Positions 1 through 32,651 of a stretch of DNA of 38,417 nucleotides are shown one piece after another. The notes beneath the pieces were generated by a model. The model was not told the origin of the DNA and did not search any database. It saw only the letters and a list, made by a program, of their open reading frames with translations. Where the stretch lies: positions 1 to 38,417 of the forward strand of contig JAJYHF010000035.1 of the NCBI GenBank assembly GCA_021784875.1. The letters are read 5' to 3'. The DNA is from a bacterium (GTDB taxonomy: Bacteria; Patescibacteriota; Minisyncoccia; Phycocordibacterales; Phycocordibacteraceae). The stretch's first letter is position 1, and each line of letters begins with the position of its first letter. Position numbers and translations under genes: made by a program.

Positions 1-9
1 AACTTCGCT

Positions 10-50
10 GGAGCAACTTTGCCGAAGCAACTTTACTGAAGCAACGAGCG
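10..50. repeat. three imperfect tandem units with 14-nt period, at the window edge and possibly truncated
   Basis: GCAACTTT at 13-20 and 27-34, GCAAC at 41-45. A period of 14 is not a multiple of 3, so this is not codon periodicity. Confidence 0.3.
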
Positions 51-1478: not shown

Positions 1479-2378
1479 TCAGGTTTCGCGGTTTGAGTGG
1501 TACTTCTTATGCACCTCACGCAGGTGGGCGTCGGTAATGTGGGTGTAGATCTGGGTCGTGTTGATTGAGGCATGGCCGAGAAGCTGCTGGACGGAGCGGA
1601 TGTCGGCGCCGTTGTTGAGGAGGTCGGTGGCGAAGGCGTGGCGCAGAACGTGCGGCGTGAGCTTCTTCGTTATGCCCGCTTTTGCAGCGTAATGCTTCAA
1701 GATCCGTTGGACGGAGCGGGGCGTGAGACGGGTCGGCATTTCCTTACCGATCGGGATGTTGACGAAGAGCGCTTCGCTCATGTCCTTACGCGCCTTGAGA
1801 TAACGGGCGACAGCCTCCTTGGCGGCAGCGGAGAGGAAGACGACGCGCACCTTCTCGCCCTTACCGCGGATAGGGAAGGAGTCCTGCGAGAGGTCGAGGT
1901 CGCTGTCGAGCGAGCAGAGCTCAGAGACGCGCAGGCCGGTCGAGAAGAAAAGCTCGAGAATCGCCTTGTCGCGTAGCTGGCGCAATTCTTCGCCATTTGC
2001 TGATGCGAGGAGCCGGTCGAGCTCGGCAGGGGAGATGAGGTCGAGCTGGCGCTCGGGGAGTTTCGCGAGCTCGATCTTCTCGGGGGAGAGGGCCTCGATA
2101 TCGCGCTTCCGCAGAAACTTGAGAAACGCGCGGAGGGCGATCATGTAGTAGTTCTGGGTGCGACGCTTCATCGAGCCGCTCCCGGCTCCTGGCTGTCGGT
2201 TAAGCCAGAGGCGAAACTCGCGAACGTTCTGTTCGCTGATGTCGCTCGTCTTCTTGATTCCCATCTGTTCGAAATAACGGGAGAGGTAATGGTCGTAGTT
2301 CTCGACCGTCTTCACCGCGCGCCCGCGCTCGATCTCGATGTATTCCAAGAATTGGCGCTTCGCCGCTTCTGCGTCCAT
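1479..2378 (-). CDS. xerC: tyrosine site-specific recombinase, XerC/XerD family
   Basis: 299 aa. N-terminal SAM-like domain (FLEYIEIERGRAVKTVENY). C-terminal catalytic region has LTPHVLRHAFAT ... GHASINTTQIYTHI (R..HxxR..H..Y). Confidence 0.85.
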   Translation of the reverse strand: MDAEAAKRQFLEYIEIERGRAVKTVENYDHYLSRYFEQMGIKKTSDISEQNVREFRLWLNRQPGAGSGSMKRRTQNYYMIALRAFLKFLRKRDIEALSPEKIELAKLPERQLDLISPAELDRLLASANGEELRQLRDKAILELFFSTGLRVSELCSLDSDLDLSQDSFPIRGKGEKVRVVFLSAAAKEAVARYLKARKDMSEALFVNIPIGKEMPTRLTPRSVQRILKHYAAKAGITKKLTPHVLRHAFATDLLNNGADIRSVQQLLGHASINTTQIYTHITDAHLREVHKKYHSNRET

Positions 2379-2512
2379 GCGTCCATGGTAGCACCGATAT
2401 TGTGCGACATAAGAAAGCCCTCACCTTCAAAGCACGAGGAAGTGCATATTGCAAACCAGGAGTCTTCTTGTGCTAGACTGATGATAATTTAATCCTATTA
2501 AATAAATTGCTT

Positions 2513-3169
2513 ATGAGCGAAAAGATGCCGAGCTCGTCCGAATTGGAAAAGATTCAGAAAGAAAATCTCACCAATGAGCAACAAAAAGAAACCCGCATAC
2601 GGGAAGAAGCTTATTTGGCCGGCATCGAAGTAAAAGATCGACAGAGTAATGAAGCAGAAAAGAAGGTTGAGACTATTGAACAGTCGATTCGAAAGTGGCA
2701 TCAACCCGCGTCTGAAGTCATAGAAGACGGAGCGAGGAAGATGGGCTCGAAAGTTGTCGAACAAAATAGGCAGAAGATTGAAACCGTGCTCAAAGAACTT
2801 TCTGGCCGCGATTATATAGACCATGAACGTTTTGAAAGATTTATAGACACATTCGGGTACGTTATGAAGCATGATTTAGAAGCTATGTTTAAGTGGGGCT
2901 ATTTATCTCATGGAGATGGTGACGCGAAAGATCTCCTGGACAGCTTCTGGCAGGCAGTAGATGACTCCGAATATGAAAGAAACCGCTACAAAATGAGGGA
3001 GTTGTACGATTCCCTTCTTAAGGAAGGGACTGAGATGATGCAGGAAAAAATGAAAGAAATCCTCGCTTCTTTTCAGGATGTCGAGGAGCTAGAAGGAGCT
3101 GTTTCTAGAGGTGGCAACCGTTATATTATGCGTGACGAGTTGGAAAGTCTTAAGGCGAGATTGAGATAA
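2513..3169 (+). CDS. hypothetical charged/coiled-coil protein in a lower-GC segment
   Basis: Long ORF with ATG at 2513 (the track starts at TTG 2507). Highly E/K/Q-rich. No family recognised. GC is about 45 % by eye. Confidence 0.55.
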   Translation: MSEKMPSSSELEKIQKENLTNEQQKETRIREEAYLAGIEVKDRQSNEAEKKVETIEQSIRKWHQPASEVIEDGARKMGSKVVEQNRQKIETVLKELSGRDYIDHERFERFIDTFGYVMKHDLEAMFKWGYLSHGDGDAKDLLDSFWQAVDDSEYERNRYKMRELYDSLLKEGTEMMQEKMKEILASFQDVEELEGAVSRGGNRYIMRDELESLKARLR

Positions 3170-3203
3170 TCGCAACCTACTTTTCGCGTCCACGGCGCAA
3201 TAC

Positions 3204-3232
3204 TTGCGTAAAATAGCAAGGCGTGGTAGGGT
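3204..3232 (+). promoter_or_regulatory. possible sigma70-like promoter of rpsO
   Basis: TTGCGT (3204-3209), 17-nt spacer, TAGGGT (3227-3232). The ATG at 3243 lies only 10 nt after the -10 element. Confidence 0.3.
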
Positions 3233-3242
3233 AGGAACATCC

Positions 3243-3509
3243 ATGCTTACCACGAAGAAAAAGGCGGCAGTCATCAAGGGTGCCGCGATTCATGACACGG
3301 ACACCGGCTCGGCCGATGTACAGATCGCGCTCCTTTCGAAGCAGATCGACGAACTGGCCAAACACCTCAAGAAGAACCCCAAAGATGTCCATTCTCGCCG
3401 GGGACTCCTCCAGATGGTCGCCGATCGTCGCGCCCACCTGCGCTACCTCGAGACTTCTGACAAGCGCCGCTACAACGCGCTCGTGAAGAAACTCGGGCTT
3501 AAGAAATAA
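3243..3509 (+). CDS. rpsO: 30S ribosomal protein S15
   Basis: 88 aa from the internal ATG. GSADVQIALLSKQIDELAKHLKKNPKDVHSRRGLLQMVADRRAHLRYL is the S15 signature region. Confidence 0.92.
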   Translation: MLTTKKKAAVIKGAAIHDTDTGSADVQIALLSKQIDELAKHLKKNPKDVHSRRGLLQMVADRRAHLRYLETSDKRRYNALVKKLGLKK

Positions 3510-3538
3510 ATATCTTCTCAGGGTGGTAATATGGGGAA

Positions 3539-3556
3539 GCGGCCGAGCCGCATTTT
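3539..3556 (+). terminator. short GC hairpin plus T-run after rpsO
   Basis: GCGGC-CGA-GCCGC followed by ATTTT. Confidence 0.35.
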
Positions 3557-3588
3557 AGTAATCTTGTTTTCATAAGCTTTCATTTTTT

Positions 3589-4098
3589 ATGGCAGTCATC
3601 AAACATCCGGCGCAGCGCGTTGGCGTATTCATCGACACGCAGAATCTCTACCACAGCGCCCGCCACCTCTATAAGGCGCGCGTCAACTTCAGCAAGATTC
3701 TCGAAGAAGCAGTAGGCGGGCGCGTACTCGTTCGCGCGATCGCTTACGTGATCTCGACGGAAAGCGGAGAAGAGAAGAATTTCTTCGAAGCGCTCACCAA
3801 GATGGGTATCGAGACGAAAGTGAAGGATCTCCAGATCTTCGCCGACGGAGCCAAGAAAGCCGACTGGGACGTGGGCATCGCCATCGACGCAGTGAAGCTC
3901 GCACCAAAGCTCGACACGGTCGTGCTCGCGACCGGCGATGGCGACTTCGTGCCGCTCATTCAATACCTAGATATCCATGGCGTTCAGACCGAGGTGATCT
4001 CCTTTGGACGTTCTTCTTCAGCGAAGCTCAAGGAGGCCGCACACGCTTTCACGGACATGGGCGAAGATCCGCGCAAGTTCACCATCGCCGCACGCTAG
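3589..4098 (+). CDS. NYN-domain (LabA/DUF88-like) protein
   Basis: VGVFIDTQNLYHSA ... VVLATGDGDFVPLIQYL are the typical NYN/LabA acidic motifs. Confidence 0.85.
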   Translation: MAVIKHPAQRVGVFIDTQNLYHSARHLYKARVNFSKILEEAVGGRVLVRAIAYVISTESGEEKNFFEALTKMGIETKVKDLQIFADGAKKADWDVGIAIDAVKLAPKLDTVVLATGDGDFVPLIQYLDIHGVQTEVISFGRSSSAKLKEAAHAFTDMGEDPRKFTIAAR

Positions 4099-4163: not shown

Positions 4164-5285
4164 ATGGGAACCGACGCGAATGACACCGGCGACATGCCGC
4201 CAAAGAGGTACATCCGCACCTTCGCGGGCGACATGAAGACGCTGCAGGGCGGCAATGAGCCGGAACTGAAGCCGCTCACAACCGCCGAAGCGGAACCGAC
4301 TCCGACGGCGCCGGGTCCTTCCATCGGGCAGGCTCACCTCATGCCCCCTCCCGAGCCGATCATTCCGACGCAGCCGATACGGGAAGAAAAGCAGGTTCCG
4401 CTAGCGCCGCCTAAGCCGCCAGAGCCGCCCGCGTCCCCGATCGAGACGTACGCAGGCGACTTTTCCGACCATGTGAAAGAAACGGGGGCCACACCTACAA
4501 CCGTTCTCGCAGCAGAGCAGGATGCTCGCGTACCGAGTGCCCCGCAGCCAACCCCTGTCCCGAGCTCGTCCCGGAGCAGCATCTGGTACATCATTGGAGG
4601 AGCTATCCTGATTGTCATCGCCAGCGTCGCCGCGTTCCTCGCGTATGCCCGATACGCATCCTCAGTGCCGCAAACCATCATACTTGCGCCGAACCTGTCG
4701 GCGCCAATCGCCGTCGATGAGCGTGCGCAGGTCTCCGGTACTGGTGAAGCGCTTATGGGCGCAATCGCTCGATCAGTCGGAACGCCGATCAAGGCAGGAA
4801 CTGTGCGACTCCTCGCCGCGACCACGACGACCACAAGCATCTTTTCCTCTCTTGACCTGTCTGCGCCTGACATACTCACGCGCAACGTGAATGCTGCGGG
4901 CAGTATGGCAGGGATAGTCGTCGCCGATGGCGTACCGAGCCCGTTTTTCATCCTCTCTGTCGCATCGTACGGAGACACCTTTTCGGGCATGCTTTCTTGG
5001 GAACCGGATATGCTGAACGACCTGTCGCCTCTCTTCCCAGCGTATGCGACAACCGTCGCGAGCACTTCCGCAACATCTTCGACACCGACCATGACGGCAG
5101 GGTTCCGCGATGAAGTCATCGGCAATCATGACGCGCGTGTGTATCGCGATGCACAGGGCCGGAGCGTCATCCTTTATGGCTACTGGAACCAAGGGACGCT
5201 TATCCTCGCACGAGACCCGGCAGCGTTTTCTATACTGTTAGAGCGGCTCGCGGCCTCGGGCAATAGCGACAACAGCGGTTCATGA
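4164..5285 (+). CDS. hypothetical single-pass membrane protein with a Pro-rich N-terminal region
   Basis: 373-aa ORF with SD GAAGGAGG upstream. One hydrophobic helix ([23 protein letters not shown]). No family recognised. Confidence 0.7.
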
Positions 5286-6907: not shown

Positions 6908-7351
6908 ATGATGGAATACCAGGTGCCGCAGTTCATCGAGGTCGAGAACAAGATCGTCGGTCCGCTGACGCTGTCGCAGTTCATCTATCTCGCGGGTGCG
7001 GCAGGAATCAGTGTCGTCTCGTTCCTCTATCTGCCGCTCATCGCCGCCATCATCATCTCCGCAGCGGCAGTCGGGCTCGCGGTCGCGCTCTCGTTCTATA
7101 AGATGAATGGGAAACCGTTCATAGAGATTCTCGAGGCCGGCTTCGGCTACTATACCGGCGCACGCTTCTTCCTCTGGAGGCATGAGGACGCCCCTGCGCC
7201 CAAAAAACAGCCACAACGAAAAACGCCGGCCATGGCGGCCGCCGAGGAGCCCAGGCGTGCGCCGGCGCTCACGCGGGGGAGGCTCTCCGAACTCGCCTGG
7301 TCGCTCGATGTCCAGAACGCGATTCCTGATTCACGGACCCCATCTCCCTAA
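6908..7351 (+). CDS. PrgI-family small membrane protein (T4SS-associated)
   Basis: YQVPQFIEVENKIVGPLTLSQFIYL followed by two hydrophobic helices, which is the PrgI-family pattern. Confidence 0.75.
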   Translation: MMEYQVPQFIEVENKIVGPLTLSQFIYLAGAAGISVVSFLYLPLIAAIIISAAAVGLAVALSFYKMNGKPFIEILEAGFGYYTGARFFLWRHEDAPAPKKQPQRKTPAMAAAEEPRRAPALTRGRLSELAWSLDVQNAIPDSRTPSP

Positions 7352-7354
7352 GGT

Positions 7355-7993
7355 ATGGCAGGACCCCGATCGACAGGCGCGTCGCAGCAGTTCGTTCCGG
7401 TCAAGGAGATCCGGAATGGAACCATCGTGCTCAAGGATGGTAGTTATCGTGGCGTCCTCCTCTGCTCATCGGTGAACTTCGAGCTCAAGTCGGCGGACGA
7501 GCAGCGCGCGATCATCCAAGGCTTCCAGAGCTTTCTCAACACGCTCGATTTCTCGATCCAGATCGTCGTGAACTCGCGCAAGATGGACCTGCGCCCCTAC
7601 CTCTCGCTCCTCGAGGCGAAGGAATCGGAACAGAAGACCGAGCTCCTGCGGATCCAGCTACGGGAATATATCTCGTTCATCCGCTCATTTGCTGACGAAG
7701 CGAACATCATGACGAAGTCGTTCTATATCGTCGTCCCGTATTCTTCCTCAGCGTCAGCCGCAAAGGTTTCCGGCTTCTTGCATCACAAGAGTGCCTCTGA
7801 GAAGGAGACGGTCGCGGAAACCTCGTTCGAAGAGGATCGCGCGCAGCTCGAACAACGGCTCGCGCTCGTCACGGGGAGTCTCGCCGGCACTGGCGTCCGT
7901 GCCGTCCCGCTCGACACTGAAGAAGCTATCGAGCTCCTCTATCGCTCCTTCAACCCGGGAGAACTTGAGAATCCTATAAGGCTAGATAGTTAG
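7355..7993 (+). CDS. protein resembling the N-terminal domain of Gram-positive-type VirB4/TraE/TcpF ATPases
   Basis: 212 aa. VPVKEIRNGTIVLKDGSYRGVLLCSSVNFELKSADEQRAIIQGFQSFLNTL matches the pattern I recall at VirB4-family N-termini. The ORF ends at the TAG that opens IR-L. Confidence 0.5.
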   Translation: MAGPRSTGASQQFVPVKEIRNGTIVLKDGSYRGVLLCSSVNFELKSADEQRAIIQGFQSFLNTLDFSIQIVVNSRKMDLRPYLSLLEAKESEQKTELLRIQLREYISFIRSFADEANIMTKSFYIVVPYSSSASAAKVSGFLHHKSASEKETVAETSFEEDRAQLEQRLALVTGSLAGTGVRAVPLDTEEAIELLYRSFNPGELENPIRLDS

Positions 7994-8014
7994 GCTCTAG
8001 GCACTAGGCTTTAG
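7991..8014. repeat. IR-L of the cassette
   Basis: TAGGCTCTAGGCACTAGGCTTTAG. It matches the reverse complement of 8857-8880 at 22/24 positions, with a 17-nt perfect core at 7998-8014. Confidence 0.85.
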
Positions 8015-8024
8015 CTCCCATTCC

Positions 8025-8492
8025 ATGAAAATATCATCTGACGAACTCACTTCCTTCTTGAACGCCGCGAATAAAGCGGGGTACGCCAATGCGGACGCAC
8101 CAAAAGCCACTTCGCTGCGGCCAGCATCGGAAGATTATCACTTTGAACAAGGCGAGTTTGTGTATCACGATACCTATTTCGGCGCACGAGATTTTATCGG
8201 GGAAGAAATCGTATATCAAGCTAATGAACCTGTTTGGGGAGCAAATTACTACGGATACATCCTAGACCCGAACATGCCAGCGAAACCGCTATACGACTTT
8301 CTCCGTTTCGCGCTTATGCAGGAAGCCGCAGGAATACTCCCGATTCGCGGCCCGAGAGAATTCTCCGAGGACGGTAGCTACTACACAAATAAGGTCGCCG
8401 GGACACTTGATCGATTCTCTGGCGAGGAGCGCATCCTTATCGACAACAAGCTTGTATATCGTTGCTGGTACCATGGCGGTGCAATCACCTGA
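8025..8492 (+). CDS. DUF5680-family protein
   Basis: 155 aa. FLNAANKAGYAN ... YHDTYFGARDFIGEEIVY..EPVWGANYYG ... LVYRCWYHGG matches my recollection of DUF5680. Confidence 0.7.
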   Translation: MKISSDELTSFLNAANKAGYANADAPKATSLRPASEDYHFEQGEFVYHDTYFGARDFIGEEIVYQANEPVWGANYYGYILDPNMPAKPLYDFLRFALMQEAAGILPIRGPREFSEDGSYYTNKVAGTLDRFSGEERILIDNKLVYRCWYHGGAIT

Positions 8493-8495
8493 CGT

Positions 8496-8867
8496 ATGCA
8501 AACCTACCGCGACCTTGTCGTATGGCAGAAATCGATGGAACTAGCGACTGCGGTATATACATTGACAGCGTGTTTCCCGCAGGAGGAGCGTTTTGGTCTC
8601 GTATCCCAGATGCAACGGGCGGCTGTTTCGATTCCTTCAAATATCGCTGAGGGGAAATTGCGTGGTTCTGCAAATGAATGGGGGCATTTTCTTCGAATCG
8701 CATTCGGTTCCGGTGGGGAACTTGAAACCCAAGTTGAGATTGCGAAACGGCTCCCGAAAACAAGTTCGCTCGAGTATGCGCACATCGACACGCTCTTGAA
8801 CGAAGTTATGCGCATGTTGAATGTTATGATTTCTAGACCACGGGCTTCGCTAGTGCCTAAAGCCTAG
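8496..8867 (+). CDS. four-helix-bundle protein of the 23S rRNA intervening-sequence protein / DGR Avd family
   Basis: YRDLVVWQKSMELATAVY...FPQEERFGLVSQMQRAAVSIPSNIAEG...GSGGELETQ is the hallmark motif series. It lies 3 nt after the DUF5680 gene. Confidence 0.85.
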   Translation: MQTYRDLVVWQKSMELATAVYTLTACFPQEERFGLVSQMQRAAVSIPSNIAEGKLRGSANEWGHFLRIAFGSGGELETQVEIAKRLPKTSSLEYAHIDTLLNEVMRMLNVMISRPRASLVPKA

Positions 8868-8880
8868 TGCCTAAAGCCTG
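8857..8880. repeat. IR-R of the cassette; part of a 14-nt tandem duplication
   Basis: The reverse complement reads CAGGCTTTAGGCACTAGGCTTTAG. TAGTGCCTAAAGCC occurs twice in tandem (8851-8864, 8865-8878). Confidence 0.85.
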
Positions 8881-8887
8881 CATTCTT

Positions 8888-10702
8888 ATGTCCCTCATCG
8901 ATTTTTTCAGCAAGAAGAAGGAAGAGACCCCATCGATCGTCCCGGTCCTCCCGAAGGATATCTACACGCGCGGGACGCTCGACCTCGTCGATACCATCGC
9001 GCCGACCGCGCTCAAGATCGGCGCGCGGGAGATCGAGCTCGGCGAGAAGTTCGTCCGGGCTTTCTACACCATCTCCTATCCGCGCTTCCTCTCTGACGGA
9101 TGGTTCTCCCCGATCATCAATCTCGATAAGGTGCTCGATGCATCTGTCTTTATCCACCCCATCGAGACCGCCCAGGCTCTGCGTGGATTCCAGAAGAAGG
9201 TCGCCGAGGTACAGAGCCAGATCAACGAGCGCGAGGCGAAAGGGCTCGTACGCGACCCGCTCCTCGATACCGCGTACCAGGACCTCGAGGCCTTGCGCGA
9301 CAATCTCCAGCAAGCGCAGGAAAAACTCTTCGACGTAGGCCTCTACCTCGCGCTCTACGGCGACTCGAAGGAAGAGATCGACAAGACGGAGGGCGATATC
9401 CGCGGCATCCTCGATGCGAAGCTCGTCTACACCAAGCCGGCTCTCTTCCAGCAGGAGCAAGGGTTCCGCTCCTGCCTGCCGCTCGGTACCGACGAGCTCC
9501 TGGTGAACAGCAAGCTCAACTCCTCGCCGCTCTCTTCGATGTTCCCGTTCGTCTCCTTCGACCTGACGAGCGATCGCGGCATCCTCTACGGCATCAACCG
9601 GCACAATTCCTCGCTTATCCTCTTCGACCGATTCTCGCTTGAGAACTACAATTCCGTCGTCTTCGCGAAGTCCGGCTCCGGCAAGAGTTACGCGACAAAG
9701 CTCGAGATCCTGCGCTCCTTGATGTTCGGCACGGACGTCATCGTCATCGATCCTGAACGCGAATACGACCAGCTTACTAAGGCGACCGGCGGCCGTTCCT
9801 TCCACATTTCGCTCTCTTCGGAGCATCACATCAACCCGTTCGATCTGCCGGCAGTCAAGGAGGATGAAGACCCGAGAGACGTGCTGCGGAATAACATCAT
9901 CTCGCTTGTCGGTCTCTTCCGCATCATGCTCGGCGGCCTCTCGCACGAGGAAGACGCTATCATCGACCGCGCCATCAGCGAGACCTACGCTCTGAAAGAT
10001 ATCACCGGCGATGCCGACTTCACGGGCGCCGAGCCGCCTTTGCTGACCGACTTCGAGCAGGTACTCTCCGGCATGGAAGGGAGCGAATCGCTGGTTGAAC
10101 GCCTTTCTAAATACACGCACGGGACCTGGGCCGGCTTCCTCGATAAGCCGACCAATATCGACCTCACCCGCCAGTTCGAGGTCTTCTCGGTACGCGACAT
10201 GGAGGACGAGCTCAAGCCGGTCGCGATGTACATGATCACGCATTACATCTGGAACGCCGTCCGGCACGATCTGAAAAAGCGCCTTCTCGTCATCGACGAG
10301 GCCTGGTGGATGATGAAGAGCGAGGATACCGCCTCCTTCCTCTACTCCGTCGCGAAGCGCGGACGCAAGTATTACCTCGGCGTCTGCACCATCACGCAGG
10401 ACGTTGAGGACTTCCTCAAGAGCCCGTACGGCCGCCCGATCCTCACCAACTCCTCTCTGCAGCTCCTCCTCAAACAGTCGCCGACGACCATCGACGTCCT
10501 CCAGCAGACCTTCAACCTCACGGACGAGGAGAAATATCTCCTTCTTGAGGCCGGAGTGGGGGAGGGACTCTTCTTCGCGGGGCTCAAGCACGCCGCGATA
10601 AAGATCGTCGCGAGCTATACCGAGGACCAGATCATCACCTCCGATCCTTCCCAGCTCCTCGCGATAAAGGAGGAGAAGGAGCGCCATGCCGCGAACGCTT
10701 AG
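8888..10702 (+). CDS. virB4: VirB4/TraC-type T4SS ATPase core (DUF87/AAA)
   Basis: 604 aa from ATG 8888 (the track ORF starts at GTG 8867 inside IR-R). Walker A FAKSGSGKSYATK, Walker B LLVIDEAWWMM, then YYLGVCTITQD. Confidence 0.85.
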   Translation: MSLIDFFSKKKEETPSIVPVLPKDIYTRGTLDLVDTIAPTALKIGAREIELGEKFVRAFYTISYPRFLSDGWFSPIINLDKVLDASVFIHPIETAQALRGFQKKVAEVQSQINEREAKGLVRDPLLDTAYQDLEALRDNLQQAQEKLFDVGLYLALYGDSKEEIDKTEGDIRGILDAKLVYTKPALFQQEQGFRSCLPLGTDELLVNSKLNSSPLSSMFPFVSFDLTSDRGILYGINRHNSSLILFDRFSLENYNSVVFAKSGSGKSYATKLEILRSLMFGTDVIVIDPEREYDQLTKATGGRSFHISLSSEHHINPFDLPAVKEDEDPRDVLRNNIISLVGLFRIMLGGLSHEEDAIIDRAISETYALKDITGDADFTGAEPPLLTDFEQVLSGMEGSESLVERLSKYTHGTWAGFLDKPTNIDLTRQFEVFSVRDMEDELKPVAMYMITHYIWNAVRHDLKKRLLVIDEAWWMMKSEDTASFLYSVAKRGRKYYLGVCTITQDVEDFLKSPYGRPILTNSSLQLLLKQSPTTIDVLQQTFNLTDEEKYLLLEAGVGEGLFFAGLKHAAIKIVASYTEDQIITSDPSQLLAIKEEKERHAANA

Positions 10703-11450
10703 CCGAGCTGCGCCCACGCCCCCGCCGGTGATGACGTGGCCCAAAGCGTCACCGGTACTCATTTTCGCAGGATTTCTCTACGCGCTGCGCCTTTTTTTCG
10801 AATCGTTCTGGTTCTTCGGCCCGGCGCTCGCGGCAGCTTACTGTACAAGCAAGGTCTCCGGATGGGTCGGGTCGCTCGGCGGCCTCACGGCGGCGGCCTG
10901 TACGGCCGCCAGCGGCGCAGTGGGATATGTCAGCGCGCCGGCGCTCATAACGTTCGGCACGGTCATGGCTATGGTAGTAGGCTTTATCGGCTGGCTTATT
11001 ATCGGTTTCTGGCTCATGATGACGAATCGGCGGATATTTGAGGACAACGCTTTCTGGTTCGTCGGCGGCCTCGCGATAAGCGAGATCCCGATTCTCGACG
11101 CGCTACCAGGCACCATCGGATCCCTCTTTAAGATGTACCGCAACCAGATCAAGCACGATAAAGCGGCTTTTGCGAAATATCAAAAGGAGCTGGAGGCATT
11201 CAACAAACAGCAGCAGCTTGAACAGCTTCAGGCGTACCAAGAACAAGCATATGCTCTCGAGCAGGCGGAGGCGGATGAGGCGGAATCTGAAGCTACTACG
11301 CAGAGCGAAGGCGCGCAGTCAGAGCTTGATGATGAGCCTCTGTCTCTCCCAATCCCGAGGCCTTCAAAAATACTCTATGCTGATTTCTCTAAGAACGCCG
11401 CTAAAAGCAGGGTCCAAGAAGAGGACGAGCGCCTTGATAGGGCTGCATAG
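10686..11450 (+). CDS. polytopic membrane protein with a Q-rich coiled-coil and acidic tail (T4SS-locus component)
   Basis: About 4-5 hydrophobic helices followed by QKELEAFNKQQQLEQLQAYQEQAY. The start could instead be ATG 10731. Confidence 0.6.
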   Translation: MPRTLSRAAPTPPPVMTWPKASPVLIFAGFLYALRLFFESFWFFGPALAAAYCTSKVSGWVGSLGGLTAAACTAASGAVGYVSAPALITFGTVMAMVVGFIGWLIIGFWLMMTNRRIFEDNAFWFVGGLAISEIPILDALPGTIGSLFKMYRNQIKHDKAAFAKYQKELEAFNKQQQLEQLQAYQEQAYALEQAEADEAESEATTQSEGAQSELDDEPLSLPIPRPSKILYADFSKNAAKSRVQEEDERLDRAA

Positions 11451-12481: not shown

Positions 12482-13677
12482 AAAAGGTTCTGGTCATCGC
12501 CGCATTCCTTATCGCTCTCGCTGGGCTCGCGCCGCACGCGCTCGCCGCGAGCTCAGGGTCGGGTTTCGTCCCCCTCGCACCCATCCCCGGTCTCACCGAC
12601 GCCCAGAGCACGAGCGTCATTAACTCGACCTCGCTCGCAAACTTCCTCAACAACCTCTACCGCTACCTCGTCGGCCTCGCGGCGATACTCGCCGTCATCG
12701 AGATTATCCGCGGCGGGCTCGAGATATCGACGAAGGACTCGGTCAGTAAGAAGACCGATGGTAAGCAGCGTGTCTATCAGGCGCTCGGCGGCCTCGCGCT
12801 CGTCCTCTCGCCGTATGTCGTCTTCTCTATCATCAACCCGAGCATCCTCGACCTCTCGCTCAACTTGCCGGCGATCAAAAACGTACCGCCTCCGGCCGAA
12901 GTCAGCACGAGCGGAGGGGGGTACGGCGGCGGAGGCTCAAGTACCGGAAACGTCTGCAATGGCGTCACCTATTCACAATTCAAGACGGTGCCAGTCCCCG
13001 CAGGCCAGTATTGTGCGAATGTCCTTGGTTCTGGATGGACGGATGTCGATTCGACATGTGCTCGGAATCCTGAAGTCGATCCGGCTTGCACTGGAACAAG
13101 CCCGGCGTCGACCTGTACGACATGCGGTCTCACCGCCACTGACCAGCAATCGAGCGTTTGCAATGTGACCGGCGCACCCGGCATCCTTCAGTTCGCCACC
13201 TGCCCCTCGGATGCGGCGGCTCAGCAGTGGGGTAATAGCTGTACCCAAAATAACGGGGATTTCTATGTGACCAACCAAAGCAAATTAACTGACGGGACTG
13301 TCACGTCTGAAGACGTGATGTGCGAAACTAAGAAAGAATACGTATTCGTGAATACGAGTACCAGCGGGTTGAAGTCTATGGTCAACATCATAAATTTGCT
13401 TCAGCCGCTGGCTGTAACATCAGATAATTCGAGCAACGCCTCTGATGCTATCCAGTTTGCGAGCGTATGCGCCGGTAGCGCAGGTACCACTTGTGTCAGT
13501 AAATATCCTGGGTACTCTTTCTCTATCCCTTGTTCGCCAACACCCACGACAGCCTTGCCTGGTGGGGCGAGCGGAAAATGCTACTCCGAAACTTTGACTT
13601 GCTGGAGTAAGGGTGCCGTGTCTACAGCGCTCAATGCCTTATGCTCGAAAAATCCTAGCTGGGCACCATTCCAATAA
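12478..13677 (+). CDS. T4SS pilin-like (TrbC/VirB2-type) N-terminal module fused to a Cys-rich extracellular domain
   Basis: Signal peptide, then the LAPIPGL..NLYRYLVGLAAILAVIEIIRGGLEI and ALGGLALVLSPYVVF helices, then a Gly-rich linker (GGGYGGGGSS), then about 250 aa with 16 Cys by my count. Confidence 0.6.
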   Translation: MKKVLVIAAFLIALAGLAPHALAASSGSGFVPLAPIPGLTDAQSTSVINSTSLANFLNNLYRYLVGLAAILAVIEIIRGGLEISTKDSVSKKTDGKQRVYQALGGLALVLSPYVVFSIINPSILDLSLNLPAIKNVPPPAEVSTSGGGYGGGGSSTGNVCNGVTYSQFKTVPVPAGQYCANVLGSGWTDVDSTCARNPEVDPACTGTSPASTCTTCGLTATDQQSSVCNVTGAPGILQFATCPSDAAAQQWGNSCTQNNGDFYVTNQSKLTDGTVTSEDVMCETKKEYVFVNTSTSGLKSMVNIINLLQPLAVTSDNSSNASDAIQFASVCAGSAGTTCVSKYPGYSFSIPCSPTPTTALPGGASGKCYSETLTCWSKGAVSTALNALCSKNPSWAPFQ

Positions 13678-13680
13678 CCT

Positions 13681-14880
13681 ATGCGCCGCATCCTCATCAT
13701 CGCCGCAGTCATCATCGCCCTCCTTGGGACCGGCGCGTTCGTATATTTCCGATTCTTCGCCGGCTCGTCGTCGACGATCGCCACCACGCCTTCAGGGACG
13801 ACGAATTTCCCGTCCGCAAATCCAAGCCCTAGCGCAGGAACGCCCACGGACATGCCCGAGACGGTGCCGGCCGCGCCGACCACCGTCTCAGCACGACTCG
13901 TGAAGATAAGCGCCGGGCCGGCCGTGCCGGGCGAGGCCGTCGTTGATCAAGGCACGGCGAGTTCTTCTGACGTTTCCGTCTCATATATCGAGCGCGAGAG
14001 CGGCAATGTCTTCTCCTACCTCACCCGCGCCGACACCATCACCCGTATCAGCAATCGCACGCTCCCGGGCATCCAATCCGCTTATTGGCTCCCGAACGCT
14101 TCATCCGCGTTCGTCCAGTATCTCTCGGGCGATGATTTCTCGACCATAAACACCTATGCGCTCCCTGCCTCTTCGGACGGCAGCACGCAAGGGTTCTTCC
14201 TGCCTCAGGACCTCGCCGGTATCGCCGTATCCTCGACAAGCGTGCTCACGCTCGCCTCAGGCGCAAACGGTTCTGTCGCCTCGATTGAGAAGACCGATGG
14301 CACACATTCCTCCCAGATATTCACGACTCCGCTCTCGGCCGTGCGCGTATCCTTCGCAGGGAAAGGGAAGTACCTAGCGTTCAGCAAGCCGTCCGCAGAA
14401 CTCGCGGGCGATGCTTTCTTGGTAGACAGCGCCGGAGACTTTTCTCGCGTCGCCGGGCCTTTGAACGGCTTAGTCGCCTTGCCGAGCCCGGACGGGAAAT
14501 GGGCGCTCGTGAGCTACACATCCGGCAGCGCCATGCAGATGGAACTCGTGGATACGGAAACCGGCCAGACGACTCCTCTCCCGGTCGCCACCATCGCAGA
14601 CAAGTGCGTCTGGGCGGCTGATGATTCCGCCGCATACTGCGGCATCCCCGAGAATCCGCCGAGCGCCACCTATCCGGACGACTGGTATCAGGGCGCCGTC
14701 CACTTCAGCGACCGGATCTGGAAGATCGACGTCGCGAGCCGGTATGCCGAGCTTGTGCTCGACTTCCCTAAAGAGACGAATGATACTCTCGACGCCACCG
14801 CGCTCGCGGTCGATCCGCTCGGAACCGAGCTCGTCTTCGTCAACAAGAATGACGGTTCGCTCTGGGGCTACCAGCTCTAG
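13681..14880 (+). CDS. N-terminally anchored protein with a possible beta-propeller-like ectodomain
   Basis: TM helix ILIIAAVIIALLGTGAFVYF and an S/T/P linker. SPDGKWALVSY-type repeats are reminiscent of TolB/PD40. Confidence 0.55.
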   Translation: MRRILIIAAVIIALLGTGAFVYFRFFAGSSSTIATTPSGTTNFPSANPSPSAGTPTDMPETVPAAPTTVSARLVKISAGPAVPGEAVVDQGTASSSDVSVSYIERESGNVFSYLTRADTITRISNRTLPGIQSAYWLPNASSAFVQYLSGDDFSTINTYALPASSDGSTQGFFLPQDLAGIAVSSTSVLTLASGANGSVASIEKTDGTHSSQIFTTPLSAVRVSFAGKGKYLAFSKPSAELAGDAFLVDSAGDFSRVAGPLNGLVALPSPDGKWALVSYTSGSAMQMELVDTETGQTTPLPVATIADKCVWAADDSAAYCGIPENPPSATYPDDWYQGAVHFSDRIWKIDVASRYAELVLDFPKETNDTLDATALAVDPLGTELVFVNKNDGSLWGYQL

Positions 14881-15626
14881 GCAGCGGAGGCTCCCATTTT
14901 CGCCTCTTTATCGAGCGTGCGGCGGACGTGCCATTCTTGGAAGACACCCACGAGGTTGGTCGTTATGAAATAGAGTGCGATAGCGCCGGATGTGGTGTAG
15001 GAGATGACCCCGATGATGAACGGGAAAACATACTTGAGCTGTGCGCCGAGCATCTTCTGGAAACCTTCCTGCATGCCTCCTCCTTGGGCAGTCGGGCTCA
15101 TGGTGCCGGAAAGTGCCATATGCGCCTGGAAAAACTGGGTTACCCCGGCGATGATCGCAAGGGTGAGGCTCTGTCCCATCACCGACAATATCCCGAGGAA
15201 CTGAAGCGATACGCCGTGCGGGATCGGCGTGAAGGAATAGAGACGCGCCGCGTCGACGGTAAGGAATGGCTCGTAGCGGAAGACCCAATAGAGCGCCAGC
15301 AGGACGGGAATCTGGATGATAGCTGTCAAAATGCTCGCGAACGGGTTCACGCGCGCTTCTTTATAGAGGGCGAGCGTTTCGACTGCTTCTTTCTCCTTGT
15401 TGCCTTTATGCTTCTCCTTAAGTTCCTTGATGCGCGGTTCCAGGGTCTTCATAGCGCGTTGTGTGCGTGCCGCCGAAAGCGAGAAGGGGAGGAGGACGAG
15501 CCGGATAGCGATAGTGAGAAGGATAACCGCGATGCCAACGTTCGACCCGGGAACGATAGCCATGAGCGCCACGAGCGCGTTATATATCGGATTATAGAAA
15601 AAAGCGTGGAAAAGGTACGATATCAC
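14877..15626 (-). CDS. yidC: YidC/Oxa1-family membrane protein insertase (short form)
   Basis: IAVILLTIAIRLVLLPFSL...PRIKELKEKHKGNKEK...YKEARVNPF...IQIPVLLALYWVF. Confidence 0.9.
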   Translation of the reverse strand: MISYLFHAFFYNPIYNALVALMAIVPGSNVGIAVILLTIAIRLVLLPFSLSAARTQRAMKTLEPRIKELKEKHKGNKEKEAVETLALYKEARVNPFASILTAIIQIPVLLALYWVFRYEPFLTVDAARLYSFTPIPHGVSLQFLGILSVMGQSLTLAIIAGVTQFFQAHMALSGTMSPTAQGGGMQEGFQKMLGAQLKYVFPFIIGVISYTTSGAIALYFITTNLVGVFQEWHVRRTLDKEAKMGASAA

Positions 15627-15640
15627 GGATTTTGCGGTGA

Positions 15641-15970
15641 TTATTCAAGGACGCGACGCAGCAAATCGGCAAGTTCGGCCCTCAAGTCCTTATAGCTTAC
15701 ACTACGCACGGAAGCGGAGGGAAATACGATGAGCGCCGGCGGGAGGTCGAGTGTCCGTAGCGCCGAGAGAATACGCCGTTTTATCGCATGGCGGTTCGCA
15801 GCGAGACGTACGGTTTTCTTCGGAATCACGACCGCGTAACCTCGTACGCCCTCAGGAAGCCTAGCCGGTAGCGGGACGACCACGGAGAGATGAGGAGAGG
15901 AGAAGCGCCGACCGCTCTTCAAAACGGCAGGGAAGATAGCACGCGGGAGCCGCTGTCGGCGCGGAAACAC
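15641..15970 (-). CDS. rnpA: ribonuclease P protein component
   Basis: FPRRQRLPRAIFPAVLKSGRRFSSPHLSVVV...IPKKTVRLAANRHAIKRRI. The start is placed at GTG 15970, 7 nt after rpmH. The longer track ORF would overlap rpmH. Confidence 0.75.
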   Translation of the reverse strand: MFPRRQRLPRAIFPAVLKSGRRFSSPHLSVVVPLPARLPEGVRGYAVVIPKKTVRLAANRHAIKRRILSALRTLDLPPALIVFPSASVRSVSYKDLRAELADLLRRVLE

Positions 15971-15977
15971 GGGGAAT

Positions 15978-16115
15978 TTAGGCAGCGAGACGAGCTCGGC
16001 CGCTCCGCCGGCGCTTCTGGACGATCTTATTCCCCGAGGAGGTCTTCGTACGCGAGAGGAAGCCATGCGTCCCGGCGCGCTTCTTCTTCTTCGGCTGGTA
16101 GGTTCGTTTCGGCAT
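15978..16115 (-). CDS. rpmH: 50S ribosomal protein L34
   Basis: Hand translation gives MPKRTYQPKKKKRAGTHGFLSRTKTSSGNKIVQKRRRSGRARLAA (45 aa, too short for the track). Canonical position upstream of rnpA. Confidence 0.92.
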   Translation of the reverse strand: MPKRTYQPKKKKRAGTHGFLSRTKTSSGNKIVQKRRRSGRARLAA

Positions 16116-16219
16116 ATGGGTATTCGGTTATACACACCATACTAACAGGTTCTCCCCAAACCGCCAGCCTGGTCCCGTTCATGAACGAGAGTATACTCAC
16201 TCTATATATATATGGATAA
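16116..16219. promoter_or_regulatory. rpmH-dnaA intergenic region: DnaA-box-like sites, palindrome and (TA)n run
   Basis: TTATACACA at 16128-16136. Palindrome GAGTATACTC at 16189-16198. TATATATATAT at 16203-16213. Minus-strand TTATCCATA at 16211-16219 overlaps the dnaA ATG. Confidence 0.45.
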
Positions 16220-17567
16220 GCGGAACCTACAGGAACTTTGGGAGTATGTACTGACGCAGGTCGAGCTTTCCATTTCTTCCGCGAACTTCAAGACTTGGTT
16301 TTCGAACAGTTTCATTGTGAAGATCGGCGAGGATGGTGTGGTCCAAATCGGGGTGCCGAGCCAATTCTTTAAGGATTGGTATGTAAAGAAGTTCAACACC
16401 CTCCTTCTGAAGATATTCAGGGATGTTTCGTATGAATTCCGGAATATCGAATACGTCATCGTGAAGGACGAGCGGCGGAAACCGCCGAAAGAATCTCGCT
16501 CCTCAGCCGCCGGAGCGCTCTCGCTCCCGCTCGATGAGTTCTATATCAATAAGAGCGACAATCTCAACCCGCGCTATACCTTCGACACGTTCGTGATAGG
16601 TTCCTTCAATGCGCTCGCTCATACGGCAGCGCAAGCCGCGCTCACCCGTCCCGGTATCGCTTATAATCCGCTCTTTATCTATGGCGATACCGGCCGCGGG
16701 AAAACGCACCTGATCCAGGCGATCGGTAATCAGTTCAAGAAGTCCTATCCGGGACGGAAAGCGTTCTACCTTACCTCTGAGAAGTTCGCGGTCGATTATA
16801 CCGATGCGCTGCAGGCAGGGACCGCGAACCGCTTCAAGGACCGATATCGCCAGTACGACCTCCTCATCATGGACGACATACAGTTCCTCTCGGGGAAGGA
16901 TAAGACGCAGGAGGAGCTTTTCCATCTCTTCAACGCTCTCCGTGACACGAACAAACAGATCATATTCTCTTCCGACCGATCACCAGCCGCAATCCCGGAC
17001 ATCGCAGAACGGCTTAAAGGGCGCCTCGCGAGCGGTATGGCCGTCGACATCAGCGAACCGGATACGGAGTCACGCATGGAAATCGTGAGGAAGAAAGCCG
17101 CTGCACACGGATTCCTCTTCTCTGACGAGGTCATCGAGCATGTCGCGACCGTGGCGCCCGGCTCGATCCGCGAGCTTGAAGGGATGATCAATTATGTCGT
17201 CTGCCAGGCACAAGCGAAGGGAACCTCTCCTGACATCGCAGAAGTCCGCAACGCGCTCCGTTCCTTCGCTAAACCGGCAAAGAACGTGTCGGTGAAGCAT
17301 GTGGTGGGGAAGGTTGCTGAATTTTATGGCATCGACGAGGAGAGTGTCTATGAAAAGACGCGGCGGCGCGAGGTGGTGCGGCCGCGACAGGTGATCATGT
17401 TCCTTCTGCGCGAAGATTTCAACGTCTCGTATCCGACCATCGGCACGAAGCTTGGCGGTCGCGATCACACGACCGTTATCCACTCCTGTGAGAAGATAAA
17501 GAAGGATATCGTTGTGGATACCGACCTCGCAAAGGAGATCCAATCCATCCGCTCGATACTCGTATGA
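16212..17567 (+). CDS. dnaA: chromosomal replication initiator DnaA
   Basis: 451 aa. GDTGRGKTHL, LLIMDDIQFL, and the C-terminal DNA-binding signature IGTKLGGRDHTTVIHSCEKI. Confidence 0.95.
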   Translation: MDKRNLQELWEYVLTQVELSISSANFKTWFSNSFIVKIGEDGVVQIGVPSQFFKDWYVKKFNTLLLKIFRDVSYEFRNIEYVIVKDERRKPPKESRSSAAGALSLPLDEFYINKSDNLNPRYTFDTFVIGSFNALAHTAAQAALTRPGIAYNPLFIYGDTGRGKTHLIQAIGNQFKKSYPGRKAFYLTSEKFAVDYTDALQAGTANRFKDRYRQYDLLIMDDIQFLSGKDKTQEELFHLFNALRDTNKQIIFSSDRSPAAIPDIAERLKGRLASGMAVDISEPDTESRMEIVRKKAAAHGFLFSDEVIEHVATVAPGSIRELEGMINYVVCQAQAKGTSPDIAEVRNALRSFAKPAKNVSVKHVVGKVAEFYGIDEESVYEKTRRREVVRPRQVIMFLLREDFNVSYPTIGTKLGGRDHTTVIHSCEKIKKDIVVDTDLAKEIQSIRSILV

Positions 17568-21726: not shown

Positions 21727-22276
21727 CGTCGGTGCTCTCGTAGCCGCGTGCATTAGTGAAGACCGCCTGCACGTCGTCGTGCTCGTCGAGGGCGGAGAGG
21801 ATGTTCGCGAGTTTCTCTTCATCGGCGCCGGCAATCTCGGCGAGCGGCTCGTTCGGGACATACGTCTCGCCCTGTTTGGTGAAGGCCCAGGCGGCCGCAC
21901 CGGGCGCAGCGACCTCGACACCCTGCTTCGAGAGAAGGTGCTTCACCTCCTGGGTGGTGCGGTTCTTGTTGTCGGTGAGCGCGTCGACGATGAGCGCGAC
22001 GCCGCCCGGGCCGTAGGCTTCATACGTGACGCGCTCAAGCGTGCCCGCATCCTTCGAGACGCCCTTGGCCACCGCGCGCTCGATGTTCTCCTTCGGCATG
22101 TTGACCGCCTTGGCGCGCGTGATGGCGGCCGCGAGCCCTGGGTCAGAGAGCGAGCCGCTCGCTTTCTTCGACTCGAGGGTGATGAGCCGTGCATATCTCG
22201 CGAACACCCGGCTCCGCGCCGCATCTGCGACGCCCTTCTGCCTTTTGATTTGTGCCCACTTGGAATGTCCGGACAT
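21707..22276 (-). CDS. yebC: YebC/PmpR-family transcriptional regulator
   Basis: MSGHSKWAQIKRQKGVADAARS... is the invariant N-terminus. 20-nt overlap with ruvC. Confidence 0.92.
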   Translation of the reverse strand: MSGHSKWAQIKRQKGVADAARSRVFARYARLITLESKKASGSLSDPGLAAAITRAKAVNMPKENIERAVAKGVSKDAGTLERVTYEAYGPGGVALIVDALTDNKNRTTQEVKHLLSKQGVEVAAPGAAAWAFTKQGETYVPNEPLAEIAGADEEKLANILSALDEHDDVQAVFTNARGYESTDDADTGD

Positions 22277-22324
22277 GATGGAACTATACCAAAATGGAAA
22301 CGAATTTGTTTCGAAACCCAATTC

Positions 22325-22684
22325 TTACTTGAGATAATGATAAGTATTTACTATTGAAATTACGAAATAACTGAACAACACCAACATGATCAATTTGTCA
22401 GGAAGAACAAAACCGAAACGTTTCTTTAAAGTTCTATTGATAAAATTCTCCCCCTCTTTTCCCAATCGTAAACGCAATCTCAATTTATCCTCAATAATAG
22501 TCAGAGGGCAATTTACAAAGAATATAATTTCAAGGCCTACAACAACCAAATAGAAAATAGTAAAGAAAAACTTAAAAGGATTTAAAAATATTAAAAACAA
22601 ACCTAAAAAACCTACGACAAGAATCGCCGTATGAATTGACACAACGGATTTCAAAACAAATAAACTAATTTTTTGTCGTTGCAT
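22325..22684 (-). CDS. DUF2784-like small membrane protein in a very AT-rich insert
   Basis: 119 aa, about 4 TM helices, and a CPLTIIEDKLRLR motif resembling the CPLT..E..LR signature I recall for DUF2784. GC is about 30 % by eye. Confidence 0.6.
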   Translation of the reverse strand: MQRQKISLFVLKSVVSIHTAILVVGFLGLFLIFLNPFKFFFTIFYLVVVGLEIIFFVNCPLTIIEDKLRLRLRLGKEGENFINRTLKKRFGFVLPDKLIMLVLFSYFVISIVNTYHYLK

Positions 22685-29982: not shown

Positions 29983-30017
29983 CTGTTCCTAAGTAGGGGG
30001 TTAAGGCGACAAAATAG

Positions 30018-30046
30018 TTGCCAGAATTACCAATCTAATCTATGAT
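30018..30046 (+). promoter_or_regulatory. sigma70-like promoter of the HigB/HigA-ImmA module
   Basis: TTGCCA (30018-23), 17-nt spacer, TATGAT (30041-46). Confidence 0.45.
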
Positions 30047-30103
30047 ATTTCTATACACACGATGGGTAAATAAAAGTTGCGGGCAATCCTTTTTTGAGAT
30101 AGT

Positions 30104-30420: not shown

Positions 30421-30426
30421 AAACTT

Positions 30427-32650: not shown

Positions 32651-32651
32651 G

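Follow-up and report, generated by a model that had tools for sequence, protein, structure and literature searches.

The window analysed here is a 38,417-nt stretch of metagenomic DNA (contig JAJYHF010000035.1) in which an 890-bp cassette of two genes occupies positions 7991-8880 of a type IV secretion system (T4SS)-like operon. A first reading of the letters (the original prediction) had described it as a module bounded by inverted repeats and related to the intervening sequences (IVSs) of 23S rRNA genes. The gene upstream of the cassette (7355-7993, +; 212 aa) is TraC-like (PF26593) and encodes a detached N-terminal domain of VirB4; NCBIfam VirB4 models match the protein at approximately positions 2-236, varying by model. 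The gene downstream (8888-10702, +) encodes a VirB4-type ATPase (P-loop_TraG 2.4e-23, AAA_10, DUF87) that constitutes the C-terminal part of the split VirB4, so that the two halves flank the cassette. The upstream neighbour had been taken to be prgI, which is in fact the preceding gene (6908-7351, +; Pfam PrgI 30.8 bits, cut-off 27).

The first cassette gene (8025-8492, +; 155 aa) encodes a DUF5680 protein (Pfam E-value: 2.8e-31; PF18931 108.4 bits, cut-off 25, with all 104 profile positions covered). The second (8496-8867, +; 123 aa) is separated from it by 3 nt and encodes a four-helix-bundle protein of the PF05635/TIGR02436 family, the "S23p" 23S-IVS protein family; PF05635 genes and proteins are referred to here as 4HB. 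Its assignment to this family, already made from the letters, is firm: it scores 119.4 bits against PF05635 (23S_rRNA_IVP; cut-off 33.8, profile positions 1-105 of 106) and 112.9 bits against TIGR02436 (cut-off 24), matches PDB 2gsc (E-value: 9e-24) and contains the conserved motif SIPSNIAEG. Profile searches found no recombinase or transposase domain in either cassette protein, in agreement with the original prediction.

The repeats that bound the cassette were borne out on re-reading. The left arm (IR-L, 7991-8014, +, TAGGCTCTAGGCACTAGGCTTTAG) and the right arm as first delimited (IR-R, 8857-8880, +, CTAAAGCCTAGTGCCTAAAGCCTG) are complementary at 22 of 24 positions and share a 17-nt perfect core. 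An inverted-repeat search returned arms at 7992-8014 and 8857-8879 (23 nt, 96% complementary), and the 17-mer core, with up to three mismatches allowed, had no site besides the two arms in the 38-kb window and none in 100 shuffles. The left arm begins on the TAG stop codon (7991-7993) of the open reading frame (ORF) at 7355-7993, and 7 nt separate the end of the right arm from the virB4 ATG at 8888. The 7-nt spacer CATTCTT (8881-8887, +; compare ..tgacattctttATG in the related locus L023) is probably a leftover of the original intercistronic spacer.

What the first reading overlooked is that the arms are tandem arrays of 7-nt units (heptads), TAGGCNN on the left and the complement on the right. 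The left arm (7991-8014) comprises 3.4 heptads (TAGGCTC TAGGCAC TAGGCTT TAG), is G-rich and C-poor, and presents TAG in all three frames. The right array is C-rich and begins earlier than had been noticed, at 8850 (8850-8880, +; CTAGTGC CTAAAGC CTAGTGC CTAAAGC CT(G)); it includes a perfect 14-nt tandem, and the last codons and stop codon of the 4HB gene are embedded in it. Tandem Repeats Finder (TRF) reported a period of 7 or 14 at 7991-8009 and 8850-8879. Two degenerate units, TAAGGCT AGATAGT (7977-7990, +), likewise overlooked, lie within the last codons of the TraC-like gene and probably mark the true left edge of the inserted DNA. With at least three tandem 7-nt units in an intergenic gap, the arms are heptameric arrays in the accepted sense.

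The cassette has a GC content of 50.2%, compared with 58.4% for the window and 58-63% for the flanks, and ranks 52nd lowest among 751 windows of equal size. The lower interior noted by eye is thus real, while the drop computes to 8-13 points and not to the 10-15 that had been estimated. No sense-strand sigma-70-type promoter or intrinsic terminator was predicted within 7991-8880, which suggests that the cassette is transcribed as part of the operon. No Rfam family spans the arms, the only matches in the window being three tRNAs. In the predicted fold of a 951-nt transcript, the arms pair in both the minimum free energy (MFE) and the centroid structures, a check suggested with the original prediction.

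The cassette is located between two protein-coding genes and not, like an rRNA IVS, in an rRNA gene (23S helix 25 or 45, or 16S). It otherwise has the properties of an ORF-bearing IVS: a long stem, formed by 23-nt arms that pair in the predicted folds, encloses it, and the loop contains an S23p/4HB gene that reads in the same direction as the host transcript and adjoins heptameric repeats. The window element can therefore be classed as an IVS module that carries a passenger gene and resides in an mRNA operon, and the early suggestion of an IVS-like module outside rRNA holds.

Occupied and empty junctions in related genomes

A VirB4 scan of species-representative genomes yielded 80 syntenic loci from related Paceibacteria (individual compared loci carry L-numbers). 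The VirB4 ATPase is 73-92% identical in these relatives, and both prgI and the split of virB4 are found in all 80. The gap between the TraC-like gene and virB4 is at most 45 nt in 69 of the 80, compared with 898 nt here; most relatives have an empty gap of 5-30 nt, and the usual short junction consists of the stop codon, 2-10 nt and the ATG. This comparison, which had been put forward at the outset as a check, indicates that the cassette is an insertion, because the great majority of relatives have the short junction. The TraC-like/virB4 junction and the junctions around prgI have been struck repeatedly by heptad elements, and the question arises whether such an element may have caused the virB4 split.

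Orthologous cassettes occupy the same junction in three other lineages: L092 (a Kaiserbacteria metagenome-assembled genome), L096-99 and L193. At least three metagenome samples yielded this arrangement in separate assemblies. A chance repeat or an assembly artefact, in whose favour we can name only that the source is a metagenome assembly, can for practical purposes be discounted given these independent assemblies, the diverged orthologues that share the arrangement and the failure of the repeat to occur in shuffles. The left and right arms read TAGGCTC TAGGCGC TAGGCTC TAG and CTAGCGC CTAGAGC CTAGCGC CT in L092, TAGGCTT TAGGCGC TAGGCTT TAG and CTAGCGC CTAGAGC CTAGCGC CT in L096, and TAGGCTT TAGGCGC TAGGCTC TAG and CTAGCGC CTAGAGC CTAGCGC CT in L193. 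From the window to the orthologues, GCAC/GTGC becomes GCGC/GCGC and GCTT/AAGC becomes GCTC/GAGC, matched on both arms, with one U.G pair at the latter position in L096. These changes appear compensatory in a 16-bp register, which is suggestive only, as tandem-repeat arms have no unique pairing register. For the joined arms of the window and its orthologues, predicted energies are -34 to -40 kcal/mol (z -3.8 to -5.9), far better than those of shuffles.

Carriers (the window, L092 and L096) share the sequence AT[AC] AGG CTA GAT A[GA]T TAG at the 3' end of the TraC-like gene, where non-carriers have CGN CTC GAC AAT TAA encoding identical amino acids; beyond this recoded end the carriers have no extra similarity. 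The shared recoding indicates that the heptad array reaches approximately 14 nt into the TraC-like coding sequence (7977-7990) and that the left arm provides the stop codon. In L193 (2573-2700), the 4HB gene has suffered an in-frame internal deletion of approximately 85 codons (MQTYRDL is fused to ...ETLLDEVMRMLNAMLSKASA), with the DUF5680 gene and both heptad arms intact. This locus gives a snapshot of decay toward ORF-less forms.

Such forms occur in the same operon. Over approximately 900 kb, made up of the window and the 80 related loci, a 4HB profile search gave 12 ORFs, one in the window and 11 in the relatives, all 12 in the operon sense and at most 2.5 kb upstream of virB4. In the relatives they lie before prgI, in the prgI/TraC-like gap or at the TraC-like/virB4 junction. 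Every one is bracketed by inverted heptad arms with a unit of its own: TGAAGNN and AAGAATN in L048, GAGTTAN in L049, AGCTNNN in L058, L061 and L069, and CTAGNNN in L059 and L065. Six relatives (L027, L049, L051, L065, L075 and L082) have ORF-less heptad hairpins at the TraC-like/virB4 junction, with loops of approximately 30-90 nt, predicted energies of -33 to -63 kcal/mol and identical polarity in 6/6. A spacer of another kind was seen at L058 (approximately 4685-5001), where 316 nt between the TraC-like gene and virB4 contain no heptads and no 4HB gene but include a GC-rich, apparently structured stretch.

No near-identical copies of the cassette were found elsewhere, each carrying contig having one. 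The copy check proposed with the original prediction did turn up a related element at another operon junction: upstream of prgI in L059, a 4HB pseudogene 67-69% identical to the window-type 4HB is bracketed by arms in the window's dialect (...gctagtgcctag...cctagcgcctagcgtctagcgt). Conversely, the elements at the window's own junction in L048 (the first of its two) and L061 have 4HB proteins only 49-54% identical to it and use other dialects. The presence of one lineage at two junctions and of different lineages at one junction suggests that cassettes relocate or are re-acquired over evolutionary time. Mobility as first suspected thus finds indirect support in the form of evolutionary relocation, and none in the form of recent transposition; the evidence fits rare gain, loss or relocation followed by decay to ORF-less hairpins, and not active transposition.

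The cassette proteins are 63-71% identical between carriers, a degree of identity that resembles that of the flanking PrgI (60%) and TraC-like (74%) proteins and shows the cassette to be old. The same figures would be expected if its genes were ordinary, vertically inherited accessory genes whose hairpins serve local regulation (translational coupling, attenuation or mRNA stability), and the single copy per carrying contig and the 70% identity of the nearest DUF5680 protein elsewhere fit that explanation as well. In a neighbour-joining tree of PrgI, TraC-like and VirB4 proteins, however, the carriers do not cluster and approximately 40 cassette-less species fall among them, although this tree is star-like, has no bootstrap and is compatible with single gain or multiple loss alike. 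Purely vertical descent also sits poorly with the derived 3' end of the TraC-like gene that carriers share, with the L059 element at a different junction, with the unrelated dialects at the window's junction in L048 and L061, and with the occurrence of the module in other phyla, in rRNA as well as in accBC and cas operons, as described below. We consider it improbable.

Heptad-bracketed 4HB genes elsewhere

A metagenome scan with a 4HB alignment identified a separate set of 80 loci at 42-64% identity, 67 of them with full flanks. None of these 80 4HB loci lies in rRNA. We scored the best inverted repeat between the 200 nt upstream and the 200 nt downstream of each 4HB gene, with a threshold of 14 or more. 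The observed genes had a median score of 17 and reached the threshold in 49/67 cases, compared with a median of 8 for both controls (9/402 with mismatched flanks and 0/224 at random positions in the same loci; Mann-Whitney p 8e-30 for observed genes against random positions). The original suggestion that the module is more general than its rRNA context is upheld by this set, most members of which have arms and all of which lie outside rRNA.

The arms have a period of 7 nt in 40 of the 49 elements, 8 nt in eight and 9 nt in one, and hardly any two elements share a repeat unit. In 61/68 elements, G is abundant and C scarce in the left arm. Units take the form (T)AGNNNN, AG being present in 56 of 70 consensus units, and TAG accounts for 5.9% of left-arm trinucleotides compared with 1.7% on the right, CTA being the mirror image. 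The stop codon of the 4HB gene marks the start of the right arm (median offset -1). The left arm begins no further than 17 nt from the stop codon of the gene upstream in 29/37 elements, and the ATG of the next gene is at most 28 nt from the right arm in 31/39. Both neighbours are co-oriented with the element in 30/46. Three-frame stops are enriched over shuffles (left arms 44% vs 14%, right arms 33% vs 7%); they were rejected as a strand-specific signal, antisense strands being similarly enriched, and the TAG-left/CTA-right asymmetry is cleaner. The longest arms seen were those of L166 (contig Ga0302187_10126351), which extend over 138 nt with approximately 20 AGTTCAC/AGTTCTT units per side.

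The core of this cassette class is one 4HB gene, a 5' array of (T)AGNNNN units and a 3' complementary array that starts from the stop codon. We are highly confident that the window element is a member of this widespread class. The PF05635 family itself comprises 19,891 representatives of 50%-identity clusters at an E-value of 1e-3 or less.

Variation among the arms bears on a further explanation, that the cassette is a non-autonomous DNA transposon, a classical miniature inverted-repeat transposable element (MITE) or insertion sequence (IS), moved by a transposase that acts in trans on its terminal repeats. Terminal inverted repeats, the lack of an internal transposase and presence/absence polymorphism are all as one would expect of such an element. 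The arms, however, have a sequence of their own in nearly every element, even where a genome contains more than one, and could not all be recognised by a single transposase; they are also variable-length tandem arrays without defined termini. No target-site duplication was found at the window cassette, as first reported, nor in the 49 elements, whose longest shared boundary word averaged 3.33 nt compared with 3.29 nt in controls, and a multicopy family of identical elements is absent. This explanation is largely refuted already, and we regard it as very improbable.

The DUF5680 gene does not belong to the class core. DUF5680 homologues at 55-70% identity are common in candidate phyla radiation (CPR) bacteria, the closest non-orthologous one being 70% identical. 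In at least six other contexts, stand-alone homologues have neither a 4HB gene nor inverted repeats (scores 7.5-9), and DUF5680 as a component of the module was rejected for this reason; of the two-gene module first proposed, only the PF05635 core stands. DUF5680 is passenger cargo, captured in the lineage of the window. Its AlphaFold2 model is of high confidence (pLDDT 92), but a fold search of the PDB gave nothing significant (best E-value 0.011, TM 0.25, UTRA or lipocalin-like), and there was no PDB sequence match and no match in PHROG. PADLOC matched neither DUF5680 nor 4HB, and membership of a defence system was rejected.

The class is also found in named organisms. A tblastn search against plasmids returned 24 records, mostly from Nostoc, Calothrix and Anabaena. 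On a Calothrix plasmid, a 4HB gene with heptad arms lies between oppositely oriented toxin-secretion genes, and on a Gemmatirosa plasmid an unannotated 4HB gene has arms with an 8-nt unit. In Pseudanabaena galeata pPg_01 (L204, 24000-28100), a heptad-armed element separates cas6 from cas4 in a type I-D CRISPR-Cas operon, and ORF-less hairpins after cas4 and before cas2 use its dialect, AGCTNTT/AAAAGCT; the hairpin arrays of this operon reach up to 18 heptad units. On two plasmids of Nostoc sp. PCC 7120, gamma and alpha (L194 and L195), the identical 4HB WP_010994075.1 adjoins transposase genes; only a C-rich downstream array (CTTCTGC/CCTCTGC) is kept, the left arm being apparently lost or replaced.

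Azospirillum lipoferum AZO_p2 (L202) carries a classical IVS, its 4HB gene (14398-14730) lying within a 23S rRNA gene (large subunit rRNA 13183-16381). This IVS has a left arm of GAGGACG/GATGACA type and a complementary right arm, in the orientation and polarity of the cassette class. The Azospirillum heptads resemble the GACAGAT units of Coxiella; the gene table of the plasmid is blank at this locus because RNA genes were omitted from it.

In Xanthomonas citri (L200/L201, 1923-2381), arms of GGGAATC type bracket a 4HB gene that separates accB from accC. The left arm reads GGGAATC GGGAGTG GAGAATG GGGAATC and the right arm, which touches the accC ATG, CCCACTC CCCATTC TCGACTC CCTATTC CC. The 4HB protein is a homologue of the crystallised XCC0516 (PDB 2gsc). 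The GGGAATC arrays of Xanthomonas, approximately 186 in number, are described as enriched and G-quadruplex-forming, and 70 convergent inverted pairs are reported in X. campestris (PMC4692102). The accB/accC 4HB gene is unmentioned in that paper; the shared units indicate that the G-quadruplex repeats of Xanthomonas are linked to 4HB cassettes.

Proposed working and comparison with known systems

ORF-bearing rRNA IVSs with inverted repeats, their excision by RNase III, the large, Avd-related PF05635 family and heptameric arrays are all already known. The IVS of Coxiella has a 28-bp stem cleaved by RNase III and variable-number GACAGAT heptads beside its S23p ORF (PMC4990558), and PF05635 genes are also present in rRNA insertions of CPR bacteria (PMC11270868). 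The 23S rRNA IVSs of Leptospira, Coxiella burnetii, Brucella and Azospirillum share with the cassette a PF05635/S23p gene that occupies the loop and is oriented like the host transcript, and terminal inverted repeats that form a 20-30 bp stem. In both, heptamers adjoin the ORF (GACAGAT in Coxiella, PMC4990558; GAGGACG/GATGACA in Azospirillum), the 5' arm is G-rich and the 3' arm C-rich, and ORF-less and ORF-decayed versions occur. The cassette differs in that its host is an mRNA operon, in that it occupies a gap between stop and start codons instead of replacing a helix tip, and in its second gene, DUF5680.

By analogy with these IVSs, we propose that the cassette is co-transcribed with the operon and that its arms pair in the transcript as a stem of approximately 23 bp. 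With the stem formed, the upstream stop codon and the downstream ATG would lie only a few nucleotides apart, and the native 5-10 nt spacing would be regained. Insertion would be nearly silent for the host genes: a TAG every 7 nt would halt ribosomes in any frame at the cassette edge, and a ribosome terminating at the left arm would open the stem beside the virB4 start, so that coupling is kept. A stem of at least three heptads (approximately two helical turns) is the type of substrate that RNase III accepts, and the enzyme may cut out the RNA of the cassette and so part the messages on either side, in the manner of rRNA IVSs; such excision is demonstrated for rRNA IVSs and drawn by analogy for the window cassette. 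We hold this RNase III and coupling mechanism to be quite possible, if short of probable; the overall explanation, in which the identity of the element and its working are combined, we consider fairly likely to be right.

Several observations weigh against this proposal. Among 72 elements, sense-strand G.U and A.C arm mismatches number 86 and 88, and without an excess of G.U an RNA stem and a DNA-level inverted repeat are not told apart. The arms are imperfect, with approximately 18% mismatches under relaxed alignment; being tandem they can pair in several registers, and the seemingly compensatory changes among the four orthologues vary with the register chosen. In 16 of 46 metagenomic elements, the element is not co-oriented with both neighbours. 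CPR promoters may escape a sigma-70 scan, and no RNase III gene is present in the 38-kb window.

The lack of a G.U bias is equally in keeping with a two-component element that works at the level of DNA, in the manner of repetitive extragenic palindromes and their associated transposases (REP/RAYT). The heptads would be binding or recombination sites for a pentamer of the Avd-like 4HB protein, gene-bearing cassettes would be autonomous, ORF-less hairpins of the same dialect non-autonomous, and the RNA stem a by-product. Several ORF-less hairpins do share the unit of a neighbouring 4HB element (GAGTTAN in L049, AGCTNNN in L061), the cas hairpins of Pseudanabaena use the dialect of the cas6/cas4 element, and in Xanthomonas the accB/accC 4HB carries units identical to those of the many genomic GGGAATC arrays and inverted pairs (PMC4692102). 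Furthermore, the genome of L048 has two 4HB genes, 38% identical, with different units, and a conserved (T)AG core with four free positions resembles a protein recognition code. REP/RAYT systems (REPINs) are likewise built of a small gene between inverted short repeats, with many gene-less intergenic hairpins, a repeat dialect that fits the resident gene and no target duplications. RAYT, however, belongs to the HUH/Y1 transposases, a family that neither cassette protein matches, and 4HB shows no signature of a nuclease or recombinase; REPs are single palindromes, whereas the cassette arms are tandem heptads; and 4HB elements are only putatively mobile. No nuclease, recombinase or HUH domain was found in 4HB or DUF5680, identical copies and target duplications were not seen, and binding of heptads by 4HB is only presumed. 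The strict orientation to transcription, including that of 6/6 ORF-less hairpins, is more easily explained at the transcript level. We judge a DNA-level element of this kind unlikely; it and the transcript-level proposal are not mutually exclusive.

The original prediction had also pointed to Avd, the accessory protein of diversity-generating retroelements (DGRs). Distant homology within the four-helix-bundle fold stands (bAvd 24.4 bits, NF033474 21.6 bits, PHROG Avd 5e-7), and Avd is a pentameric protein that binds nucleic acid and reverse transcriptase. Membership does not, as the bAvd and NF033474 scores fall below the family cut-offs of 40 and 80, respectively. No reverse transcriptase was found among the genes scanned in the window and contig, and no template/variable direct repeat lies near the cassette; with scores below the cut-offs and no reverse transcriptase, assignment to a DGR was rejected. 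Avd genes of DGRs are not known to have heptad arrays around them.

Heptameric arrays are an over-represented class of bacterial repeats that lacks an explanation (PMC4692102). Those described in Xanthomonas (GGGAATC), cyanobacteria (short tandemly repeated repetitive (STRR) sequences and GGGGATT) and Beggiatoaceae (TAACTGA) are, like the cassette arms, intergenic between co-oriented genes; they often abut start codons or overlap the end of the upstream ORF, often occur in convergent pairs and vary in copy number. They differ in being mostly ORF-less with one dialect per genome, whereas each CPR element has its own. The papers that describe them propose G-quadruplex or translational roles, do not tie the arrays to a gene and do not mention 4HB or IVS proteins. 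In a full-text literature search, the scope of which excluded subscription journals, we found no description of 4HB genes outside rRNA bracketed by inverted heptads of fixed polarity, of 4HB genes as precise intercistronic cassettes, or of GGGAATC-type arrays as 4HB arms.

The finding ties together rRNA IVSs, the PF05635 family and heptameric arrays, and makes the rRNA IVS a special case of a general cassette that lives mostly between protein-coding cistrons. Going further, 4HB and its heptad arrays may constitute one ancient, cross-phylum two-component element with shared dialects that settles in intercistronic gaps and rRNA helices, a tentative idea that we think somewhat more apt to fail than to hold. 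Operon transcripts would be "punctuated" for RNase III by the hairpins of this element, with the (T)AGNNNN code recognised by a 4HB pentamer. If true, the two-component idea would explain the origin of rRNA IVSs, give a function to a family of approximately 20,000 protein clusters without an assigned one, and account for much of the excess of heptameric repeats (Xanthomonas GGGAATC, cyanobacterial STRR). Since approximately 1990, rRNA IVSs and the S23p ORFs in them have remained without a known explanation. Heptad hairpins in operons could mark former cassettes, and the "23S_rRNA_IVP" genes reported as cas-associated may partly reflect cassette insertions in cas operons. The link among IVSs, PF05635 and heptameric arrays also leads to testable predictions in culturable carriers, namely the accB-4HB-accC operon of Xanthomonas, the cas operons of Nostoc and Pseudanabaena, and the rRNA of Azospirillum.

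The remainder of the window

The PrgI gene is the first gene of a conserved T4SS-like block in which prgI, the TraC-like gene and virB4 are followed by several unannotated genes and then by yidC, dnaA and dnaN. The window is part of a 47-kb metagenome contig, and the rest of the window contains housekeeping genes (PBP1, RuvC, RuvB, PolA, Mur ligase and ThrC). These neighbours indicate that the host operon is chromosomal, in a CPR bacterium of Paceibacteria/Kaiserbacteria type. A 632-aa ORF on the minus strand (8864-10762), antisense to virB4, is a shadow ORF of GC-rich coding DNA and not a gene.

At the start of the window (1-45; L001 1977-2018), a tandem array with a 14-nt period (AACTTCGCTGGAGC AACTTTGCCGAAGC AACTTTACTGAAGC) lies between the genes for a CCA-adding enzyme and an Exo_endo_phos protein; a partner in inverted orientation was not found within 1.5 kb. 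Further patches of low GC content (45-50%, compared with 58% overall) occur at 2251-3600, 22051-22950 and 29701-31500. The first adjoins a tyrosine recombinase gene (1479-2378, minus strand), and the last covers a gene with helix-turn-helix and Peptidase_M78 (ImmA/IrrE-like) domains near a tRNA-Lys gene (32651-32724). These patches may be additional accessory islands.

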